Positions 2,291 to 26,992 of a stretch of 32,000 bases of DNA are shown piece by piece (the first letter of the stretch is position 1; every line of letters begins with the position of its first letter). This DNA comes from Halomicrobium mukohataei DSM 12286. GTDB lineage: Archaea > Halobacteriota > Halobacteria > Halobacteriales > Haloarculaceae. The stretch is taken from the NCBI RefSeq assembly GCF_000023965.1, contig NC_013202.1, positions 1,920,001-1,952,000 on the forward strand, given 5' to 3'. Both the position numbers and the translations under genes were made by a program. The notes beneath the pieces are model-generated. The model was given only the letters and a program-made list of their open reading frames with translations, had not been told where the DNA came from and did no database searches.

Positions 2291-3259
2291 TTACCTGATC
2301 CGGACGCGCAGCCAGCGAACTGCGCTCTCTCGGGACGGCTCCCCCGGTGGCTCCCCCTCGTAGAGGAGGTAGGTCAGTTCGAGCGGGCGGTCGCCGCGTT
2401 CGAGGTCGAGTGCGTACGTCGCCGTCCCGGTCCCGCCGTCGCCGAGCGTGAGCGACGTGCGACCGAGGGTCCGTTCCTCGACGACGCCGCGGTCGGTGGC
2501 GATGCCGGTCCGGGCGACGACGGTGTAGTTCGCACCGGGACGTTCCGGGCTCTCGACGACCAGCTCGTGGACCGACTCGTTGCCGATCGTCTCGGCGGTC
2601 GCCATCACCCGCTCGCCGTCGGGTCCGTCGGTGGTGAGGTAGAACTCCGTGACTTCCTGACCGCTGTCGGCCGTCGCGACGACGCCCCCGGCACCCACGG
2701 CGGCGACGCTCAACAGGACGGCGACGATCAGGAACACCTGCGTCTTCGGCCGTTCGGTCGTCCCCGCCAGCGCCCGGCGCAGCGGCGTCGTCACCTCGAA
2801 CCGCTCTCCGACCGGCAACCGCTCGCGTCTGACGAGCGCGATCACGCCCGCGGCGATCGTCACCGCGGCGACGGTGTCGAGGACGGGGACGAGCGTCAGC
2901 GACCAGACGGCCTCGACGGCGACTCCGACCAGCGGGACGACGAACAGGCTCAGCCCGACCGCGAGCGCGGCGCGCTCGATCGCCGTCGGGCCGTCCACGG
3001 TCGTCTCGGTCTCTCGACGGGCCGCCGGATACAGGGCCGCGACGACGGCGTACCCCGGCACGAACAGCAAGAGCGGGACCGCGAGGACGGCCCTCGCGGC
3101 GACTGGGAGCCCGAGCGGGAGCGAGAACAGGATCGCCCCCACGAGGGCCAGCAAGACGACCGCTGCGACGTCGATCGACGACGCCAGCCGCGGCAGCGCG
3201 ACCGACGACGACTGGACAGTTCTGTCTGACATTGGGCTGGATTCTGAATCTCCGCGCAT
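2291..3259 (-). CDS. DUF1616-type membrane protein (N-terminal TM bundle plus C-terminal extracytoplasmic domain)
   Basis: Only the 3' third of the 711-aa track ORF looks like a protein. It has TM helices with the FVPGYAVVAALYP signature I associate with DUF1616, then an acidic beta-rich tail. ATG 3259 lies 2 nt after the upstream stop; ATG 3232 is an alternative. Confidence 0.75.
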   Translation of the reverse strand: MRGDSESSPMSDRTVQSSSVALPRLASSIDVAAVVLLALVGAILFSLPLGLPVAARAVLAVPLLLFVPGYAVVAALYPAARRETETTVDGPTAIERAALAVGLSLFVVPLVGVAVEAVWSLTLVPVLDTVAAVTIAAGVIALVRRERLPVGERFEVTTPLRRALAGTTERPKTQVFLIVAVLLSVAAVGAGGVVATADSGQEVTEFYLTTDGPDGERVMATAETIGNESVHELVVESPERPGANYTVVARTGIATDRGVVEERTLGRTSLTLGDGGTGTATYALDLERGDRPLELTYLLYEGEPPGEPSRESAVRWLRVRIR

Positions 3260-10961: not shown

Positions 10962-11094
10962 CACGCCTTCTCGCGGACCGTCGCCGTACCCGAGTACCGT
11001 GCGTTCGGCGTTCGGACTGTCGACAGTCACTGCTTCGCGATAGCCGTGTCTCCGGGGTCGCGAGATTCGGCTCGGACGGACGACTGACCGTCTC

Positions 11095-11175
11095 ATACGG
11101 ATTATTGTAGCGATTTACCGGTGATCGTCTACTCCGTGGCGACGATCACCGGTAAGCAACTACAATAAACCGTCT
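11095..11175. repeat. Extended hairpin element, copy 1
   Basis: 15-bp apical stem (11115-11129 with 11141-11155, 11-nt loop), a 4x4 internal loop, a 9-bp stem (11102-11110 with 11160-11168) and a 4-bp basal stem (11097-11100 with 11170-11173). It lies 43 nt past the stop of the 11219-11839 gene. Confidence 0.7.
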
Positions 11176-11218
11176 CGGCCGCTCGCACAGAAAACCGGAC
11201 CCGGTCCCGCCGACCGTC

Positions 11219-11839
11219 CTAGACCGTGCTCTGCTCGTCGGTCTGTCGGTCGACGTACTCGTTGACGATCGCACAGCAGCCGAACGCGACGAGCACGACC
11301 GGGACGACGACGCCGACGCTGACGGCCGGGACGATCAGTGCGAGTCCGTACAGTGCGGTCCCGCCGGCAGCGAGCCCCGCGTAGTACCGGGGCCAGGGAC
11401 GGTCCTCGTCGTCGCCGATGTCGAGGAACTCTTCGAGCTGGTCGGCGTTCGGTCCGAGACTGATCGTCCCCCGGTTCTGATCGAACGCCACGACGTTCAT
11501 GTCGTCCATCTTGGGCAGATGGCACTGATAGAGGCCGACGTAGACGCGCTTGCGCTCGCTCGAAGAGATCGCCTGGACGGTCGTGTCGTTCTCGATGGCG
11601 GCGATGTGTTCGGCGAGATCGCTCAGCGAGACCGTCTCGTCGTCGGCCGCTTCGAGGTACCGCAACACTTCGCGGCGACGCTGGTTTTTCAGTAACTCGA
11701 ACACCCGATCGACCGGTAAGGGTGCCGGCTCGTCCGCCGTCACCTCAGCCCCTTCCTGCTGGGCTGACTCCGTCGTCTCGTTCGTGTCGCCGACCGATCC
11801 ACCCTCCGTCTGTGTTGACTCATCGCGCGTTGCGCTCAT
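11219..11839 (-). CDS. Membrane-anchored winged-helix protein (DUF7344-like N-terminal domain plus 2 C-terminal TM helices), paralogue 2
   Basis: RRREVLRYLEAADDETVSLSDLAEHIAAIENDTT ... RKRVYVGLYQCHLPKMDDMNVVAFD. This is followed by RPWPRYY and two hydrophobic helices. Confidence 0.8.
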   Translation of the reverse strand: MSATRDESTQTEGGSVGDTNETTESAQQEGAEVTADEPAPLPVDRVFELLKNQRRREVLRYLEAADDETVSLSDLAEHIAAIENDTTVQAISSSERKRVYVGLYQCHLPKMDDMNVVAFDQNRGTISLGPNADQLEEFLDIGDDEDRPWPRYYAGLAAGGTALYGLALIVPAVSVGVVVPVVLVAFGCCAIVNEYVDRQTDEQSTV

Positions 11840-12282
11840 AGTAGTCTCCCAGTGTTCGCTGATTCATGTTCGTGACCTCCGTTGATCGTCCATTACCGGC
11901 TTGTGTCTGTGTCTGTTTCCTCGGTGACCCCGTACCGGTGACGCGACGCCAGCACCCACCATGGATCCTGGCCTCGGTCCAGTGGACGTATACTCACACC
12001 ACCGGGAGACTTTTAATTGTTTCCTATACTTAACTTCTATTCTGAATGTTACTGCATCTGTAACATTTGTCAAATTGGGTATTATAGGCGACAGCCGGTG
12101 GTTACTCCGACTGACCGAACGTATAATCTGTTCTTTCTGCCGAAATGCAGACATCTATGGGAATATTGATATTTACCGAAGAATTACTAATTGTCCTCTC
12201 CCCATCGCGCTGTTGGCCGCCACCGGCTCGTCGTCCGCACGACCCGTGGTCGCGAAGGGCACCGAGGACGGCCGACAGTATC

Positions 12283-12362
12283 ATACGGACGGTTGTAGCG
12301 ATGTACCGGTGAGCGTTGGGACGGGTAGACGCTCACCGGTACGCAACGCCAACGTTCCGTAT
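12283..12362. repeat. Extended hairpin element, copy 2
   Basis: Terminal ATACGGA / TCCGTAT 7-bp stem and a 14-bp apical stem (12303-12316 with 12329-12342, 12-nt loop). Shares the TTGTAG-NNNN-T(G/T)TACC left arm with copies 1 and 3. Confidence 0.7.
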
Positions 12363-12363
12363 T

Positions 12364-12445
12364 ATACGGACGGTTGTAGGCGTTTACCCAGTCGACCGCA
12401 CGACGGCGTGCGGTCGATCTGGTAAAGATCTACAACTTTCCGCAT
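12364..12445. repeat. Extended hairpin element, copy 3 (tandem with copy 2; abuts the dehydrogenase stop codon)
   Basis: GTTGTAG / CTACAAC 7-bp stem (12373-12379 with 12430-12436). The apical stem has 18 bp with one bulge (12384-12401 with 12408-12426, 6-nt loop). Terminal ATACGGA / TCCGCAT. Confidence 0.7.
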
Positions 12446-13812
12446 CAGTCGGAGGTCGCGGGCCCGCTCCCGATCGTGTACACCTCGCCGGCCGTCGCCG
12501 GGTCCGTCAGTGCGTCTCGACCGTCGACGACGACCGGATCGGCGAGTCGGTCCCAGGGCACGTCGTCGAACGCGTCGTGGGCCGTCACCAGTACGAGCGC
12601 GTCCGGGTCGATCGCGGGGAGCTCCGACAGCGTCGCCGGCCGCCCCGGGAAGGCCGCGAGGTCGCTGCACACCGGATCGACGGTGTACACGTCGGCACCG
12701 GCCGCCGACAGCGCGGCGGTGATCGTCCAGGCCGGCGACGCCCGCGTCTCGTCGATCCCCGGACGGTAGGTGACACCGAGGACGGCGACGCTCGCGTCTC
12801 CGATCTCCGTGCCGGCGTCGACGAGCTGCTCGACGGTCTTGTGAACGGTGAACTCCTCCATCCGCTCGTTGACCCGGCGGGCCGTCTCCAGCAGCGGTGT
12901 CGACGTCTCGACGGTGTCGATGACGAAGTGGGGGTAGTAGGGGATACAGTGCCCGCCGACGCCGGCACCGGGATCGTGGAGCTCGCAGTACGGCTGGGTG
13001 TTGGCCGCCTCGATCGCTTCGCGCACGTCGATCGCGAGCCCGTCGGCCAGCCGTCCCAGTTCGTTGGCCAGCGCGATGTTGACGTCCCGGTAGAGCCCTT
13101 CGAACAGCTTGACGCACTCGGCGGTCGTCGGATCGCTCACGGGAATGACCTCGTTGCTCGTGAGTTCGCCGTACACCAGCTTCGCGACGCGCGTGCTCTC
13201 TTCGTCGACGCCACCGACGATCTTCGGGTAGCTGCCGGTGATGTCTTCGAGCGCGCGTCCGCTGGCCGTCCGCTCCGGACAGAACGCGAGCGCGAACTCG
13301 TCGGGGGCCAGCCCGCTCTTCTCGACGAGCCGTGGCCGTAGCACGTCGACGCACGTGCGCGGGGGGAGCGTCGATTCGAGGAACACCGCGTCGCCTGGTG
13401 CCAGTCCAGCAGCCACGTCGTCGACGACCGACTCCACTGCGGACAGGTCCGGACTGTCCGCGTCGTCGAGCAGCGTCGGGACGATGACGACGTGTAGCGC
13501 CGCCGACTCGGCGGCGTCGACCCCGTCGGTGGTGGCACGCAGCGACTCCGTCTCGACGGCCGTCTCGACGGCGGTGTCCAGTCCCGGTTCGTCCTCGACC
13601 GGGGACTGACCGTCGTTGACCGCGTTCACGACGGCGCTGTCGATGTCGACGCCGGTCACGTTTCCCGACCGGTCGGCGAACACCGCCGCGAGGGGCAACC
13701 CCATCTTGCCGAGGCCGTAGACCGCGACCGGAACGCCGCCTTCCCTGAAGGCCCGTCGCTGCTCGTCGGCCGGACGGTCACTGCCGTACAGCCGACACAG
13801 TGTCGTACTCAT
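12445..13812 (-). CDS. Nucleotide-sugar dehydrogenase, UDP-N-acetyl-hexosamine dehydrogenase subgroup (WbpA/WecC-like)
   Basis: Rossmann motif VAVYGLGKMGLPLA. The catalytic-Cys motif GGHCIPYYP resembles the UDP-GlcNAc/ManNAc dehydrogenase subgroup more than UDP-glucose dehydrogenase. 455 aa. Confidence 0.9.
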   Translation of the reverse strand: MSTTLCRLYGSDRPADEQRRAFREGGVPVAVYGLGKMGLPLAAVFADRSGNVTGVDIDSAVVNAVNDGQSPVEDEPGLDTAVETAVETESLRATTDGVDAAESAALHVVIVPTLLDDADSPDLSAVESVVDDVAAGLAPGDAVFLESTLPPRTCVDVLRPRLVEKSGLAPDEFALAFCPERTASGRALEDITGSYPKIVGGVDEESTRVAKLVYGELTSNEVIPVSDPTTAECVKLFEGLYRDVNIALANELGRLADGLAIDVREAIEAANTQPYCELHDPGAGVGGHCIPYYPHFVIDTVETSTPLLETARRVNERMEEFTVHKTVEQLVDAGTEIGDASVAVLGVTYRPGIDETRASPAWTITAALSAAGADVYTVDPVCSDLAAFPGRPATLSELPAIDPDALVLVTAHDAFDDVPWDRLADPVVVDGRDALTDPATAGEVYTIGSGPATSD

Positions 13813-22989: not shown

Positions 22990-23272
22990 GCCCTACCGTT
23001 CGGGAGCGTCGGTAACCCCTTCTTTCGGTGTCCCCTCGGAAGGCGCAACCACGCCGCTACCGACTGGTAGGCAAGTCAGTCCACTTCGACGGAATCGTTT
23101 TGTCGGTATGTACGGATTACCAGGTGTTGATGGCTCCGACACCCACCTACCAGGCCCTCCGCGACGTGGACAGTACGTCTACTACTGTCGGCCGTCCGTC
23201 CGTGACCGATCTCGCCACCTCGGGGTGGCGGACGGCTTCGCGACGTGACGGCCGACCGTACGAACGACGCCG

Positions 23273-23548: not shown

Positions 23549-23637
23549 CTGCGCTCTCGTACGGATGTCGCCCGTCGCTTCGCGGTCGGTCGAGTCCCGC
23601 GGCGACGCTCACCGGGACATCGCTACAGCCGTCCGTC

Positions 23638-25434
23638 TCACTCGACGGTCACGCTCTTGGCGAGGTTCCGTGGCTTGTCGATCGGTCGGTCGAGTTCCGC
23701 GGCGACGTGATAGGCGAGCAACTGGAGGTGAACGTTCGCGAGCACGCCCGTCAGTGCCGGATCGGTGTCGGGCACCGGCAAGTGAGCGTCCGCTCGGTCG
23801 CCCAGCGGGCTGTCGGCCGGGCCGACCGCGACGACCGGCCCGCCGCGTGATCGGATCTCCTCGGCGTTGCTGGCGACCTTCTCGGTGTTGTGGCCCGTGT
23901 CGATCGCGAACACCGGCGTCCGTTCGGTCACGAGTGCGAGCGGACCGTGTTTGAGCTCGCCAGCGGCGAACCCCTCGGCGTGTTCGTAGGTAATCTCCTT
24001 GAGCTTGAGCGCTCCCTCCAGTGCGACCGGATGGCCGGTCCCGCGACCGACGAAAAAGTACGCGTCGCTGTCTCGAAACTGCCGAGCCACGGACCGAACG
24101 TCGTCCGACTCGACGACCGTGCGGACGCCGTCGGGCAGGGCTGCGAGCGCGCGTCGGAAGGGGCGGCCCCGCCCGGTCCCCTCGCGAGCGGCCAGTTGCT
24201 CGGCCAGCAACGCCAGCGTCGCGACCTGCGAGGAGAAGGTCTTGGTGGCCGCGACGCCGATCTCGGGACCGGCCCGGATGAACAGCGCGTCGTCGCACTC
24301 TCTGGCGGCCGTGGAACCGACCGTGTTCGTGACCGCGAGCGTGGGCTGGTCCTGTGAGTGCGCCTCCCGGAGCGCCGCCAGTGTGTCGGCCGTCTCTCCG
24401 CTCTGGGTCACGCCGACGACGATCGTCCCCGCTCGCGCCGGTGGCGGTGCCGTGACGTACTCGCTGGCTAGGTGTGCGCTCGCGGGGACGCCACGCTCGA
24501 TCAGTAGCCGCGCCCCGTACAGCGAAGCGTGGTAGGAGGTTCCACAGGCGACGAAGGCCACGCGTTCGACGCCGTCGAGGGTCTCGTCCGCGAGGTCGTC
24601 GAGCGCGACGCCGTCGCCGAGTCGCCCCTGGAGGGTCTGCTCCAGGGCCCGTGGCTGCTCGTGGATCTCCTTGTGCATGTAGTGGTCGTAGCGCCCCTTC
24701 TCGGCGTCCTCGGCGGTCCACTCGACGGTCCGGACCGGTCGATCGCGGACGCGACCGTCCGCGCCGGTCACCTCGTAGTGATTCGGTCCGATCGCGACGA
24801 CGTCGCCGTCGTCGAGGTAGACCACGCTGTCGGTGCGCTCGATGAACGCGGGCACGTCGCTCGCGAGGTAGTTCGCGTCGTCGCCCAGGCCCAGGACCAG
24901 CGGCGAGCCGTTCCGTGCGGCGTAGACTCGGTCGCTGTCGGCGACGACCATCGCGATCGCGTAGCTCCCGTCGATGTCGCCCAGCGTCGCCCGGAGCGCG
25001 TCGACCGGCGTCGCGCCCGCGGCCAGATACTCCTCGACGAGGTGTGGCACCACTTCGGTGTCTGTCTCGCTGTCGAGGACGTGGCCACTCGCCCGGAGTC
25101 GATCACGCAACGACGCGTAGTTCTCGACGATCCCGTTGTGGACGACGGCGACCCGCCCCGTGCAGTCGGTGTGTGGATGGGCGTTCTCGTCGCTCGGCTC
25201 ACCGTGGGTGCTCCAGCGCGTGTGGCCGATGCCGGTCGTGCCGCCGGGACGGTCGCGACGGACGCGCCGGGCCAGCTCGGCGACCTCGCCGGAGCGCTTG
25301 ACGACCTCCAGGGACGCACCGTTCGGCACGGCGATCCCGGCGGAGTCGTACCCCCGGTATTCGAGGTTGTCCAGTCCCGAGAGCAGCGTCGAGACTGCCT
25401 CCTCACACCCCACGCAGGCGGTAATCCCACACAT
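23638..25434 (-). CDS. glmS: Glutamine--fructose-6-phosphate aminotransferase (isomerising)
   Basis: Canonical N terminus MCGITACVG (Cys nucleophile), two SIS domains and the C-terminal KPRNLAKSVTVE. 598 aa. Confidence 0.97.
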   Translation of the reverse strand: MCGITACVGCEEAVSTLLSGLDNLEYRGYDSAGIAVPNGASLEVVKRSGEVAELARRVRRDRPGGTTGIGHTRWSTHGEPSDENAHPHTDCTGRVAVVHNGIVENYASLRDRLRASGHVLDSETDTEVVPHLVEEYLAAGATPVDALRATLGDIDGSYAIAMVVADSDRVYAARNGSPLVLGLGDDANYLASDVPAFIERTDSVVYLDDGDVVAIGPNHYEVTGADGRVRDRPVRTVEWTAEDAEKGRYDHYMHKEIHEQPRALEQTLQGRLGDGVALDDLADETLDGVERVAFVACGTSYHASLYGARLLIERGVPASAHLASEYVTAPPPARAGTIVVGVTQSGETADTLAALREAHSQDQPTLAVTNTVGSTAARECDDALFIRAGPEIGVAATKTFSSQVATLALLAEQLAAREGTGRGRPFRRALAALPDGVRTVVESDDVRSVARQFRDSDAYFFVGRGTGHPVALEGALKLKEITYEHAEGFAAGELKHGPLALVTERTPVFAIDTGHNTEKVASNAEEIRSRGGPVVAVGPADSPLGDRADAHLPVPDTDPALTGVLANVHLQLLAYHVAAELDRPIDKPRNLAKSVTVE

Positions 25435-25691: not shown

Positions 25692-26948
25692 ATGCTGGAG
25701 ACGACCCGCACCTACGTCGTACGCATCACGAACCACGGTCAGGTTCGTGACGACCTTGACCAGTGCGGGTTCGTAGCATCCAAGCTGTGGAACGTCGGAC
25801 GCCACTACATCCAAGGTCGGTGGGATGAGGACGGTGAAATACCCGACGAGAAAGAGCTAAAATCGGAGTTGAAAGACCACGAACGCTACAGTGACCTGCA
25901 TTCTCAGTCAAGTCAGCGAGTTCTCGAAGAGCTTGCTGAGGCGTTCACCGGCTGGTACAACTCCGACGACGGCAATAACCCACCCGGCTATCGGAAACGT
26001 GGTGACCGACACCCGCGCTCCACCGTGACGTGGAAGCAGAAAGCCATCAAGCACGACGACAAGCACGGCCAGCTTCGTCTCTCGAAAGGCTTCAACCTGA
26101 AAGAGAGTCGATCTGACTTCATCCTCGCGGAATACGAAACCCGCCCTGACGTAGAAGTCGAGCACATCCAGCAGGTGCGTGCCGTCTGGAACGGCGACGA
26201 GTGGGAACTACACCTCGTCTGCAAGAAAGAAATTCCAATCGAGGACGCACCCGGCGACGCCACGGCGGGTATCGATCTCGGTATCAGCAACTACCTCGCT
26301 ATCGACTATGAGAACGGCCCCTCGGAGCTGTATCCGGGGAACGTGCTGAAAGAGGACAAGCACTACTTCACCCGCGAGGAGTATCAGACCGAAGGCGAGA
26401 ACGGGCCGTCGAAGCGTGCGCGGAAGGCTCGCCGGAAACTCTCCCGACGCAAAGACCACTTCCTCCACACTCTCAGCAAGCACATCGTTGAGCAGTGTGT
26501 CGAAGAAGGTGTGGGAAAGATCGCGGTTGGCGACCTCAGCGACATTCGCGAAGGCGAGAACGGTGATTCGCGGAATTGGGGTCCGTCGGGAAACAAGAAG
26601 TTGCACGGATGGGAGTTCGGCCGCTTCGCCCGTCTGCTCGAATACAAGGCCGAGGAACACGGCATCCTCGTTGATCGTGTAGACGAGGAGAACACCTCAA
26701 AGACGTGTTCGTGTTGCGGACAGATTCGTGCTAGCAACCGCGTGGAGCGTGGGCTGTACGTCTGTGAGTCGTGCGAGACGACGATGAATGCGGACGTGAA
26801 CGGTGCGGTGAACATTCGGAGAAAGATAACTCAGAGTCCCCCGACGGGGGATATGAGTAACGGCTGGTTGGCACAGCCCGGAGTCTTCCTGTTCGACCGC
26901 GAGAGCGGACGGTTCCCACCGAGAGAACAGGGAGACTGTAGACCCTAA
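25692..26948 (+). CDS. tnpB: TnpB (OrfB) RNA-guided endonuclease of the IS200/IS605 family
   Basis: 418 aa. RuvC-I GIDLGISN, C-terminal zinc ribbon CSCCG ... CESCE and RuvC-III NADVNGAVNI are all present. The reading frame is intact. A TTTAATATAA box lies about 30 nt upstream. Confidence 0.93.
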   Translation: MLETTRTYVVRITNHGQVRDDLDQCGFVASKLWNVGRHYIQGRWDEDGEIPDEKELKSELKDHERYSDLHSQSSQRVLEELAEAFTGWYNSDDGNNPPGYRKRGDRHPRSTVTWKQKAIKHDDKHGQLRLSKGFNLKESRSDFILAEYETRPDVEVEHIQQVRAVWNGDEWELHLVCKKEIPIEDAPGDATAGIDLGISNYLAIDYENGPSELYPGNVLKEDKHYFTREEYQTEGENGPSKRARKARRKLSRRKDHFLHTLSKHIVEQCVEEGVGKIAVGDLSDIREGENGDSRNWGPSGNKKLHGWEFGRFARLLEYKAEEHGILVDRVDEENTSKTCSCCGQIRASNRVERGLYVCESCETTMNADVNGAVNIRRKITQSPPTGDMSNGWLAQPGVFLFDRESGRFPPREQGDCRP

Positions 26949-26965
26949 TATCCCAACGCTCGGGA

Positions 26966-26992
26966 ATCCTCGCCCTTCAGGGCGGGGAGGAT
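26966..26992 (+). repeat. Right-end subterminal hairpin of the IS element
   Basis: ATCCTCGCCCTTCAGGGCGGGGAGGAT has the same core as the left-end hairpin and begins 18 nt after the tnpB stop. Confidence 0.6.

Follow-up and report, generated by a model that had tools for sequence, protein, structure and literature searches.

Three hairpin-shaped repeats lie between positions 11,095 and 12,445 of a 32,000-nt stretch of Halomicrobium mukohataei DSM 12286 (contig NC_013202.1, positions 1,920,001 to 1,952,000), referred to here as the window. They are very probably copies of a miniature inverted-repeat transposable element (MITE) of 79–80 bp, likely moved in trans by a transposase of an IS630 clade into the trinucleotide TSA (S = C or G) and accumulating on TGA stop codons. 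The elements are short and non-coding, with terminal inverted repeats (TIRs), a target-site duplication (TSD) of fixed length, and a dispersed, multi-copy occurrence with insertion polymorphism, as is usual for a MITE. They form a real MITE family, apparently undescribed, yet of an ordinary kind; the features worth noting are the TSA duplication of the IS630 clade, the landing on stop codons, and a palindrome whose loop occurs in both orientations. Literature searches for these sequence strings, for haloarchaeal MITEs, and for IS630 targets returned no description of the family, ISfinder lying outside the search.

The element proper, TACGGA...TCCGTA, is nearly palindromic. Each half consists of the terminal box TACGGA, three variable nucleotides, TTGTAG, a 3-nt spacer, and an inner box (TTTACCGG). 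The spacers of the two arms are unlike, leaving a 3 × 3 internal bubble, and a variable palindrome with a loop of 4 to 12 nt occupies the centre of the element. The TIRs, TACGGAnnnTTGTAG...CTACAAnnnTCCGTA, reach the very ends, and across 100 sequences 92% of the outer helix is paired. A preliminary description of this DNA had placed three palindromic copies at 11095–11175, 12283–12362, and 12364–12445, with ATACGGA...TCCGTAT termini, TTGTAG/CTACAA and T(T/G)TACC/GGTA(A/C) stems, and apical stems that differ in sequence but remain complementary; all of these were found as given. It had given the copies 80–82 nt, but the A and T at the two extremes are part of a TSA duplication of 3 bp rather than of the element. 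Folded as RNA, the three copies have energies between -45 and -49 kcal/mol and, relative to dinucleotide shuffles, z-scores between -6.2 and -8.3, with similar values on both strands; DNA folds gave z = -6.3 to -9.0. A 25-nt arm pattern matched seven arms in the window versus 0.00 expected from shuffles.

The duplication is apparent from the bases that flank the copies. Of 119 copies, 116 have one and the same base just beyond ATACGGA and just beyond TCCGTAT (63 G/G, 52 C/C), and the flank consensus over the 119 reads C-T-S, element, S-A-G. An identical TSA occurs on both sides in 124 of the 145 profile-defined copies (TGA/TGA 70, TCA/TCA 54). Only an element proper running from TACGGA to TCCGTA, with direct duplication of TSA and a preferred target CTSAG, makes the equality of the S flanks automatic.

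Empty sites confirmed this assignment. In Halomicrobium sp. HM KBTZ05 (L131), whose dehydrogenase is 97% identical to that of the window, and in an independent read-set assembly (L132), the site reads GAC-TGA-TACTGTC, that is, GAC-TGA-TACTGTCGG. The window reads GAC-TGA-(copy 3)-TAA-(copy 2)-TGA-TACTGTCGG at the same place and is 164 bp longer, or 2 × (79 + 3). Likewise, copy 1 is an 82-bp indel relative to L131, and all three copies are missing from the sister strain (CP168057.1). This precise absence identifies the three window copies as recent insertions that arrived after the split from the sister strain. A TA duplication is ruled out by the empty site, as TA predicts a different one, and by the correlation of the S flanks. 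Copies 2 and 3 had been described as lying 1 nt apart; instead, the trinucleotide between them, TTA (a mutated TCA, TAA on the minus strand), is the common TSD of both, which implies that the second element inserted into the TSD of the first. Tandem pairs with one common TSA also occur at L020, L058, and L118. Strains with an identical dehydrogenase (L121–L123) were 100% identical to the window and uninformative for empty sites; record CP045142.1 is likewise identical (100%).

The arm pattern was scanned over 185,579 species genomes and matched at least 120 genome stretches. Halobacteria account for 118 of the 120 matches listed, and the other two, from bacterial metagenome-assembled genomes (MAGs), were taken as chance matches. 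A purely local duplication, the alternative that the preliminary description had named against itself, is contradicted by this distribution. Halomicrobium katesii contributes at least 47 blocks of 8 kb; the other listed hosts are Salinadaptatus halalkaliphilus, five Haloarcula species, Natronomonas, Salinirubellus, Halorhabdus, several MAGs, Natronococcus, Natrialba, and Natronorubrum. An nhmmer profile search of 1.19 Mb of matched loci gave 162 copies, 145 of them full length, with at least 64 in H. katesii and 18 in Salinadaptatus, and further ones in Haloarcula, Natronomonas, Salinirubellus, and Natrialbaceae. Copy length varies little: 123 of the 145 full copies span 81–82 nt when the A of ATACGGA and the T of TCCGTAT are counted as the outermost bases. 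Searching PLSDB with the arm by blastn revealed copies on plasmids of Halomicrobium mukohataei, Haloarcula marismortui, Natrinema, Halococcus, and others; all of these matches were MITE copies, none beneath a transposase. No match to the element was found in viral contigs. The MITE-like option of the preliminary description is thereby borne out by the 3-bp TSD, the precise empty sites, the dispersal of more than 140 copies over many genera, and an IS630-family transposon that matches the element, described below.

The preliminary description had also noted that the copies lie just 3' of genes and had suggested tabulating their positions relative to stop codons. In 78 of the 145 copies (54%), the TSD is an in-frame TGA closing a coding-like open reading frame (ORF; at least 60 codons, with GC content at third codon positions, GC3, of at least 0.75 and GC3 > GC1 > GC2); control frames gave 1–3 such copies in 145. 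A covariance model had 13 hits on the annotated H. mukohataei JP60 plasmid, and 8 of them border the annotated stop of a coding sequence (CDS) with base precision. In the window, the main family hit the stops of the UDP-sugar dehydrogenase gene (copy 3, which ends on that codon as first described) and of glmS (a decayed fourth copy). The dehydrogenase stop was hit three times, by copies 3 and 2 and earlier by an element of a second family that is now decayed. Copies stand just 3' of genes because the TSA target contains TGA and the duplication regenerates the stop. Some copies lie between divergent genes and within ORFs.

A candidate mobiliser emerged from an all-against-all BLAST of the matched loci. 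A 575-bp repeat of H. katesii encodes a 169-aa protein with HTH_29, HTH_32, and HTH_33 (ORF1), whose homologues bear the name IS630 family transposase; the end of this repeat is TACAGTCGTGCG, preceded by TGA or TCA. Full-length relatives of about 1,142 bp comprise ORF1 (HTH_29/32/33) and ORF2 with PF13358 DDE_3, and their ends are TACGGTCGTGCG.../...CGCACGACCGTA. The duplication at this clade is TSA (3 bp) at 8 sites or more, not the classical TA; a relative with 73% identity carries the same TSA on both sides at 4 of 4 copies in the complete genome of Halorubrum trapanicum and at 5 of 6 loci examined. The papers searched contained no description of a TSA duplication for haloarchaeal IS630 elements. 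In a gap-free alignment of the MITE arms with the ends of these insertion sequences (ISs), the TSA, the TA(C/G) start, and the (T)TTACCGGT box (positions 19–27) fall in register. H. katesii carries truncated copies of the IS630-family element. These shared ends and targets suggest that the haloarchaeal IS630 clade likely supplies the transposase in trans.

Other partners were considered and rejected. IS1595-like elements have CGCTC... ends and 8-bp duplications, and the duplication lengths of IS4, ISH8, IS701, and ISH3 do not fit. 'Orphan' arms at the 120 listed loci included no full-length parent with the MITE's own ends; each was traced to a truncated, divergent, or nested MITE or to an arm beside a low-GC island.

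In the mechanism we propose, a transposase acting in trans would excise the element and insert it into TSA (TGA or TCA), preferably within CTSAG, through 3-nt staggered cuts whose repair would duplicate the TSA on either side. The likeliest supplier would be the haloarchaeal IS630 clade of about 1.14 kb (ORF1 with HTH_29/32/33, ORF2 with DDE_3). A TGA in the target would be restored by the duplication, which would make insertions at stop codons harmless. Such insertions could then accumulate on stops, leaving copies immediately 3' of genes and tandem pile-ups on one stop. Hairpin or template-switch correction between the arms at the DNA level may keep the palindrome and flip the loop, and a need for a symmetric substrate may act in its place or in addition.

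The latter step bears on how the palindrome is maintained. Each stem type of the window is multi-copy in H. katesii, which indicates that the three apical stems represent three amplified subfamilies. The covariation claimed in the preliminary description holds in that arm complementarity is maintained, but the three window stems are not independent compensatory histories. Over 100 distinct sequences, 89.8% of cells are paired, compared with 79.6% when shuffled and 29–45% with the partner slid, and at 15 pairs, in 302 cells, both partners have changed. Inside subfamilies we counted 194 changes confined to one arm and 29 double changes that compensate each other, where chance would give about 2; all compensated changes are in the apical stem or the variable triplet, and some are shared by descent. 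At one orthologous copy with flanks 97% identical, the same pair is C-G in H. katesii and G·T in H. mukohataei.

With the asymmetric bubble as reference, the 11-nt apical loop is found both ways round. Subfamily A has 11 copies in orientation 1 and 15 in orientation 2; the counts are about 5 and about 7 in subfamily B, 4 and 5 in a Salinadaptatus subfamily, and 3 and 1 in a Natronococcus MAG subfamily, while the 4-nt loop of subfamily C is found about 27 times in orientation 1 and never in orientation 2. In one pair (L006:1577 and L042:1002), the arms are identical and the loops are exact reverse complements. Since both loop isomers carry subfamily-specific stems, inversions must have recurred after the subfamilies diverged. 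From this we infer intrastrand pairing or template switching between the arms in vivo, which we favour over selection on an RNA fold; arm-to-arm copying would yield both the loop flip and 'compensatory' evolution without a selected fold. A transposase that needs a symmetric or hairpin substrate may be an alternative or additional cause.

Several observations weigh against parts of this account. The maintained complementarity (29 versus about 2) would equally fit selection on a folded nucleic acid. Stop-codon landing at 54% exceeds a crude site-count expectation of 5–10%, or up to about 25% when allowing for missed genes. Harmlessness alone may thus be insufficient to explain it; selection against insertions on the promoter side, or some additional sequence preference, probably contributes as well. 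No intact IS630 element with matching ends was seen in the H. katesii loci or in the window's genome, where the genome-wide scan was aimed at the MITE pattern only. The IS ends match the MITE only in the first 5 nt and the 8–9-nt inner box, and none of the IS ends examined has TTGTAG; the true parent may therefore be an unsampled relative.

These gaps leave some room for a different DDE transposase as the mobiliser, although we consider this improbable. Duplications of 3-bp TNA are typical of the IS1031 and ISL2 groups of the IS5 family and of PIF/Harbinger-like elements, and no intact IS630 partner was seen in the same genome by a scan aimed at the MITE pattern. IS630/Tc1/mariner elements, in turn, classically duplicate TA (PMC7386202). 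Against this, the haloarchaeal IS630 clade itself has TSA duplications at 8 or more sites, and its terminal TA(C/G)GG and TTACCGGT box align in register with those of the MITE; the 1.19 Mb of loci yielded no IS5-like element with such ends, and the repeated ISs there were IS1595-like elements and an IS630 fragment only. A structured RNA family, in which the hairpin is selected as a 3'-untranslated region (UTR) stabiliser, terminator, or small RNA and spread through its usefulness downstream of genes, is slightly less probable again. The very stable folds, the covariation (15 pairs changed on both sides; 89.8% versus 79.6% paired), the compensated changes inside subfamilies, and the position of over half of the copies directly after a stop codon, where they are probably co-transcribed, would all agree with it. 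However, such a family predicts an excess of G·U, and in 77 copies oriented as upstream mRNA we counted 80 G·U versus 98 A·C (p = 0.2). Every subfamily includes copies with the bubble in either orientation to the gene, with no strong bias, and the loop occurs both ways. No Rfam family was found at gathering thresholds (at E < 1, two sub-threshold miRNA-hairpin matches only), and a promoter/terminator scan returned nothing meaningful and no T-tail. Copies are present or absent between sister strains together with their target duplication, occur between divergent genes and inside ORFs, and decay in place. The right outer arm of copy 2 is partly decayed, with CGCCAA where CTACAA is expected. The fourth copy retains a well-preserved arm on the glmS side (GACGGACGGCTGTAGCGATGTCCCGGTGAGCGTC, minus-strand reading) but an eroded opposite arm, and folds no better than shuffles (z = -0.58); its decay argues against host selection on individual copies. 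Some copies may nevertheless have been secondarily exapted.

Least credible of all are REP/BIME-like or PATE-like palindromes, moved as single-stranded hairpins by a Y1 HUH enzyme (RAYT or the TnpA of IS200/IS605). The repeats resemble them in their hairpin shape, their intergenic and sometimes tandem arrangement, and their high copy number, and the window holds an IS200/IS605-type TnpB gene. Those systems, however, use a Y1 transposase and insert the hairpin by a guide tetra- or pentanucleotide without target duplication (PMC3119063), whereas a 3-bp TSD accompanies about 97% of the present copies and is confirmed by empty sites. PATEs also are without true inverted-repeat termini (PMC3119063), which the present elements have. 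No tnpA or RAYT (Y1) gene was seen next to any copy, and the resident TnpB element has no sequence in common with the repeats, in agreement with the preliminary description, which had also listed the REP/BIME and RNA options now disfavoured. The MITE interpretation is thus the one we retain.

MITEs derived from Tc1/mariner/IS630 elements include plant Stowaway, RUP of Streptococcus pneumoniae (linked to IS630-Spn1), and the Correia elements of Neisseria. Like these, the haloarchaeal family is short (about 80–250 bp in the group), non-coding, near-palindromic, probably mobilised in trans, high in copy number, and located near genes, with TIRs related to an IS630/Tc1-type transposon; the known elements are often co-transcribed as hairpins. 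They duplicate TA, whereas the present family duplicates TSA within CTSAG, has more than half of its copies on TGA stops, carries its loop in both orientations, and resides in Halobacteria. Some Sulfolobus MITEs are about 80 bp. Sulfolobus SM and SMN1 MITEs are archaeal and mobilised in trans by IS-encoded transposases (PMC3718332, citing Redder et al. 2001), but belong to another phylum and differ in sequence and parent IS families; stop-codon landing is not reported for them. Closest by host are the HqIRS repeats of Haloquadratum walsbyi, which embody the same MITE concept: they are transposase-free, with inverted terminal repeats and a duplication length that match a resident transposon, outnumber the transposons, and vary between strains (PMC3119063). 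None of the HqIRS sequences in the supplements of that paper match the TACGGA/TCCGTA termini; it lists no target duplication for IS630-type elements, and neither a duplication nor a related transposon for the 80-bp HqIRS41. For the IS630-Tc1-mariner group as a whole, the classical duplication is TA, with a 3-bp TAA variant in fungal Fot/pogo (PMC7386202). Fot/pogo shares the 3-bp T-N-A form with the elements described here, but is eukaryotic, autonomous, and 1.2–5 kb long, duplicates TAA rather than TSA, and has no described link to stop codons (PMC7386202).

A broader proposal is more tentative, and we think it somewhat less likely to be right than wrong in full: that an IS630 clade and at least two derived MITE families of about 80 bp use a 3-nt stagger at CTSAG (not TA at CTAG), that TGA stops serve as regenerating safe harbours beyond site availability, and that the palindrome is kept perfect by an in vivo DNA hairpin or template switch that flips the loop recurrently, in four subfamilies. 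In that case, the elements would report naturally on cruciform and quasi-palindrome dynamics in archaeal chromosomes, and hundreds of 3' UTRs across Halobacteria would bear a hairpin of -45 kcal/mol. For transposon biology, the family points to an IS630 clade with TSA instead of TA and to a transposon made harmless by rebuilding the stop on which it lands, while the flip/flop loops and compensated arm changes offer a natural data set on archaeal palindrome maintenance. The repeats are common in Halomicrobium, Haloarcula, Natronomonas, Salinadaptatus, and relatives, and abut or overlap annotated stops and starts; their recognition avoids spurious ORFs and mis-called gene ends. The copies can also serve as strain-level insertion markers in strain typing.

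The second MITE family is related to the main one, measures about 82 bp, has the ends TACTGTCGGCYGTAA...TTACAGCCGACAGTA, and shares the TSA duplication. Its decayed copy beside copy 2 is present in the sister strain too and is therefore older than the three main-family copies. Features of both families, the IS630-family elements, and neighbouring genes are collected in Table 1.

Table 1. Elements of the two MITE families, IS630-family relatives, and neighbouring features (window positions unless a locus label is given).
Feature	Position	Strand	Remarks
MITE copy 1	11096–11174		Subfamily A; stem GGTGATCGTC, loop TACTCCGTGGC
TSDs of copy 1	11093–11095 (left); 11175–11177 (right)		Left TCA; right decayed, TCG
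MITE copy 2	12284–12361		Subfamily B; stem GGTGAGCGT; profile score 44.9 bits
TSDs of copy 2	12281–12283 (left); 12362–12364 (right)		Left TCA; right TTA, common to copies 2 and 3
MITE copy 3	12365–12444		Subfamily C; long apical stem CAGTCGACCGCACG; 4-nt loop
TSDs of copy 3	12362–12364 (left); 12445–12447 (right)		Left TTA; right TCA, equal to the minus-strand TGA stop of the dehydrogenase gene
Target trinucleotide and stop codon	12445–12447	-	TGA of the UDP-sugar dehydrogenase gene 12445–13812
Decayed fourth copy, main family	23560–23637		TSD TCA at 23638–23640, the glmS stop codon
MITE end, reference form for comparison with IS630-family ends			TACGGAnnnTTGTAGnnnTTTACCGG
Decayed family-2 copy	12199–12280		Termini TACTGTCGGCCG...; directly adjoins copy 2
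Decayed family-2 copy	23183–23262		TACTGTCGGCCGTCC...GACGGCCGACCGTA; still a hairpin, z = -4.8
Family-2 copy	L054:2066–2150		
Family-2 copy	L102:6393–6477		
Family-2 copy	L124, about 11720–11802	-	
IS630-family element	L136:2455–3596		Flanked by TGA..TGA
IS630-family element	L154:1455–1603 and about 2598–2606		Flanked by TGA..TGA in C-TGA-G context; single contig
IS630-family element	L140		Flanked by TCA..TCA
UDP-glucose/GDP-mannose dehydrogenase-family ORF	12445–13812	-	Stop codon touches copy 3
DUF7344 protein ORF	11219–11839	-	Ends 43 nt from copy 1, as first described
AT-rich island	12000–12190		GC about 0.51 versus 0.67 around
IS200/IS605-type TnpB gene	25692–26988		OrfB_IS605 and Cas12f1-like TNB domains; 3' end overlaps an Rfam sot0042 match (111.6 bits)

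The AT-rich island lies outside the MITEs, between the repeats and the start of the DUF7344 gene, whose promoter region it presumably represents. The neighbourhood of the window repeats contains a cluster of several DUF7344 paralogues.

Nested and gene-embedded copies were encountered elsewhere. A family-2 element is nested in a copy of the main family at L020:4261–4430, and a larger palindromic insert in a MITE copy at L111:3320–3488. At L034:4789–5124 of H. katesii, an 89-aa ORF located in a low-GC island has a MITE copy within its 3' end; the TTGTAG box of this copy provides an in-frame TAG stop (...SYGKL*) five codons past the TCA duplication. In H. mukohataei plasmid DNA (L126:45112–45198 and L125:44579–44665), annotated hypothetical CDSs begin or end within MITE copies: the CDS 44684–45154 (minus strand) starts in one copy, and the CDS 44428–44628 ends in another. 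The probable explanation is faulty annotation or gene ends derived from the MITE.

Among the IS loci, H. katesii holds two IS1595-like ISs with CGCTC... ends (L019:4884–6228, L092:1498–2543, L058:5228–6182), one of which is inserted into a truncated IS630 copy. Further haloarchaeal IS630-family loci are L147–L150. The Halorubrum IS630 copies at L146, L147, and L149 have a common right flank (TCAAAGGGGCAG, at about 2580–2592), which in L146 is palindromic with the left flank (CTGCCCCTTTGA); these three copies may have inserted into yet another repeated palindrome.

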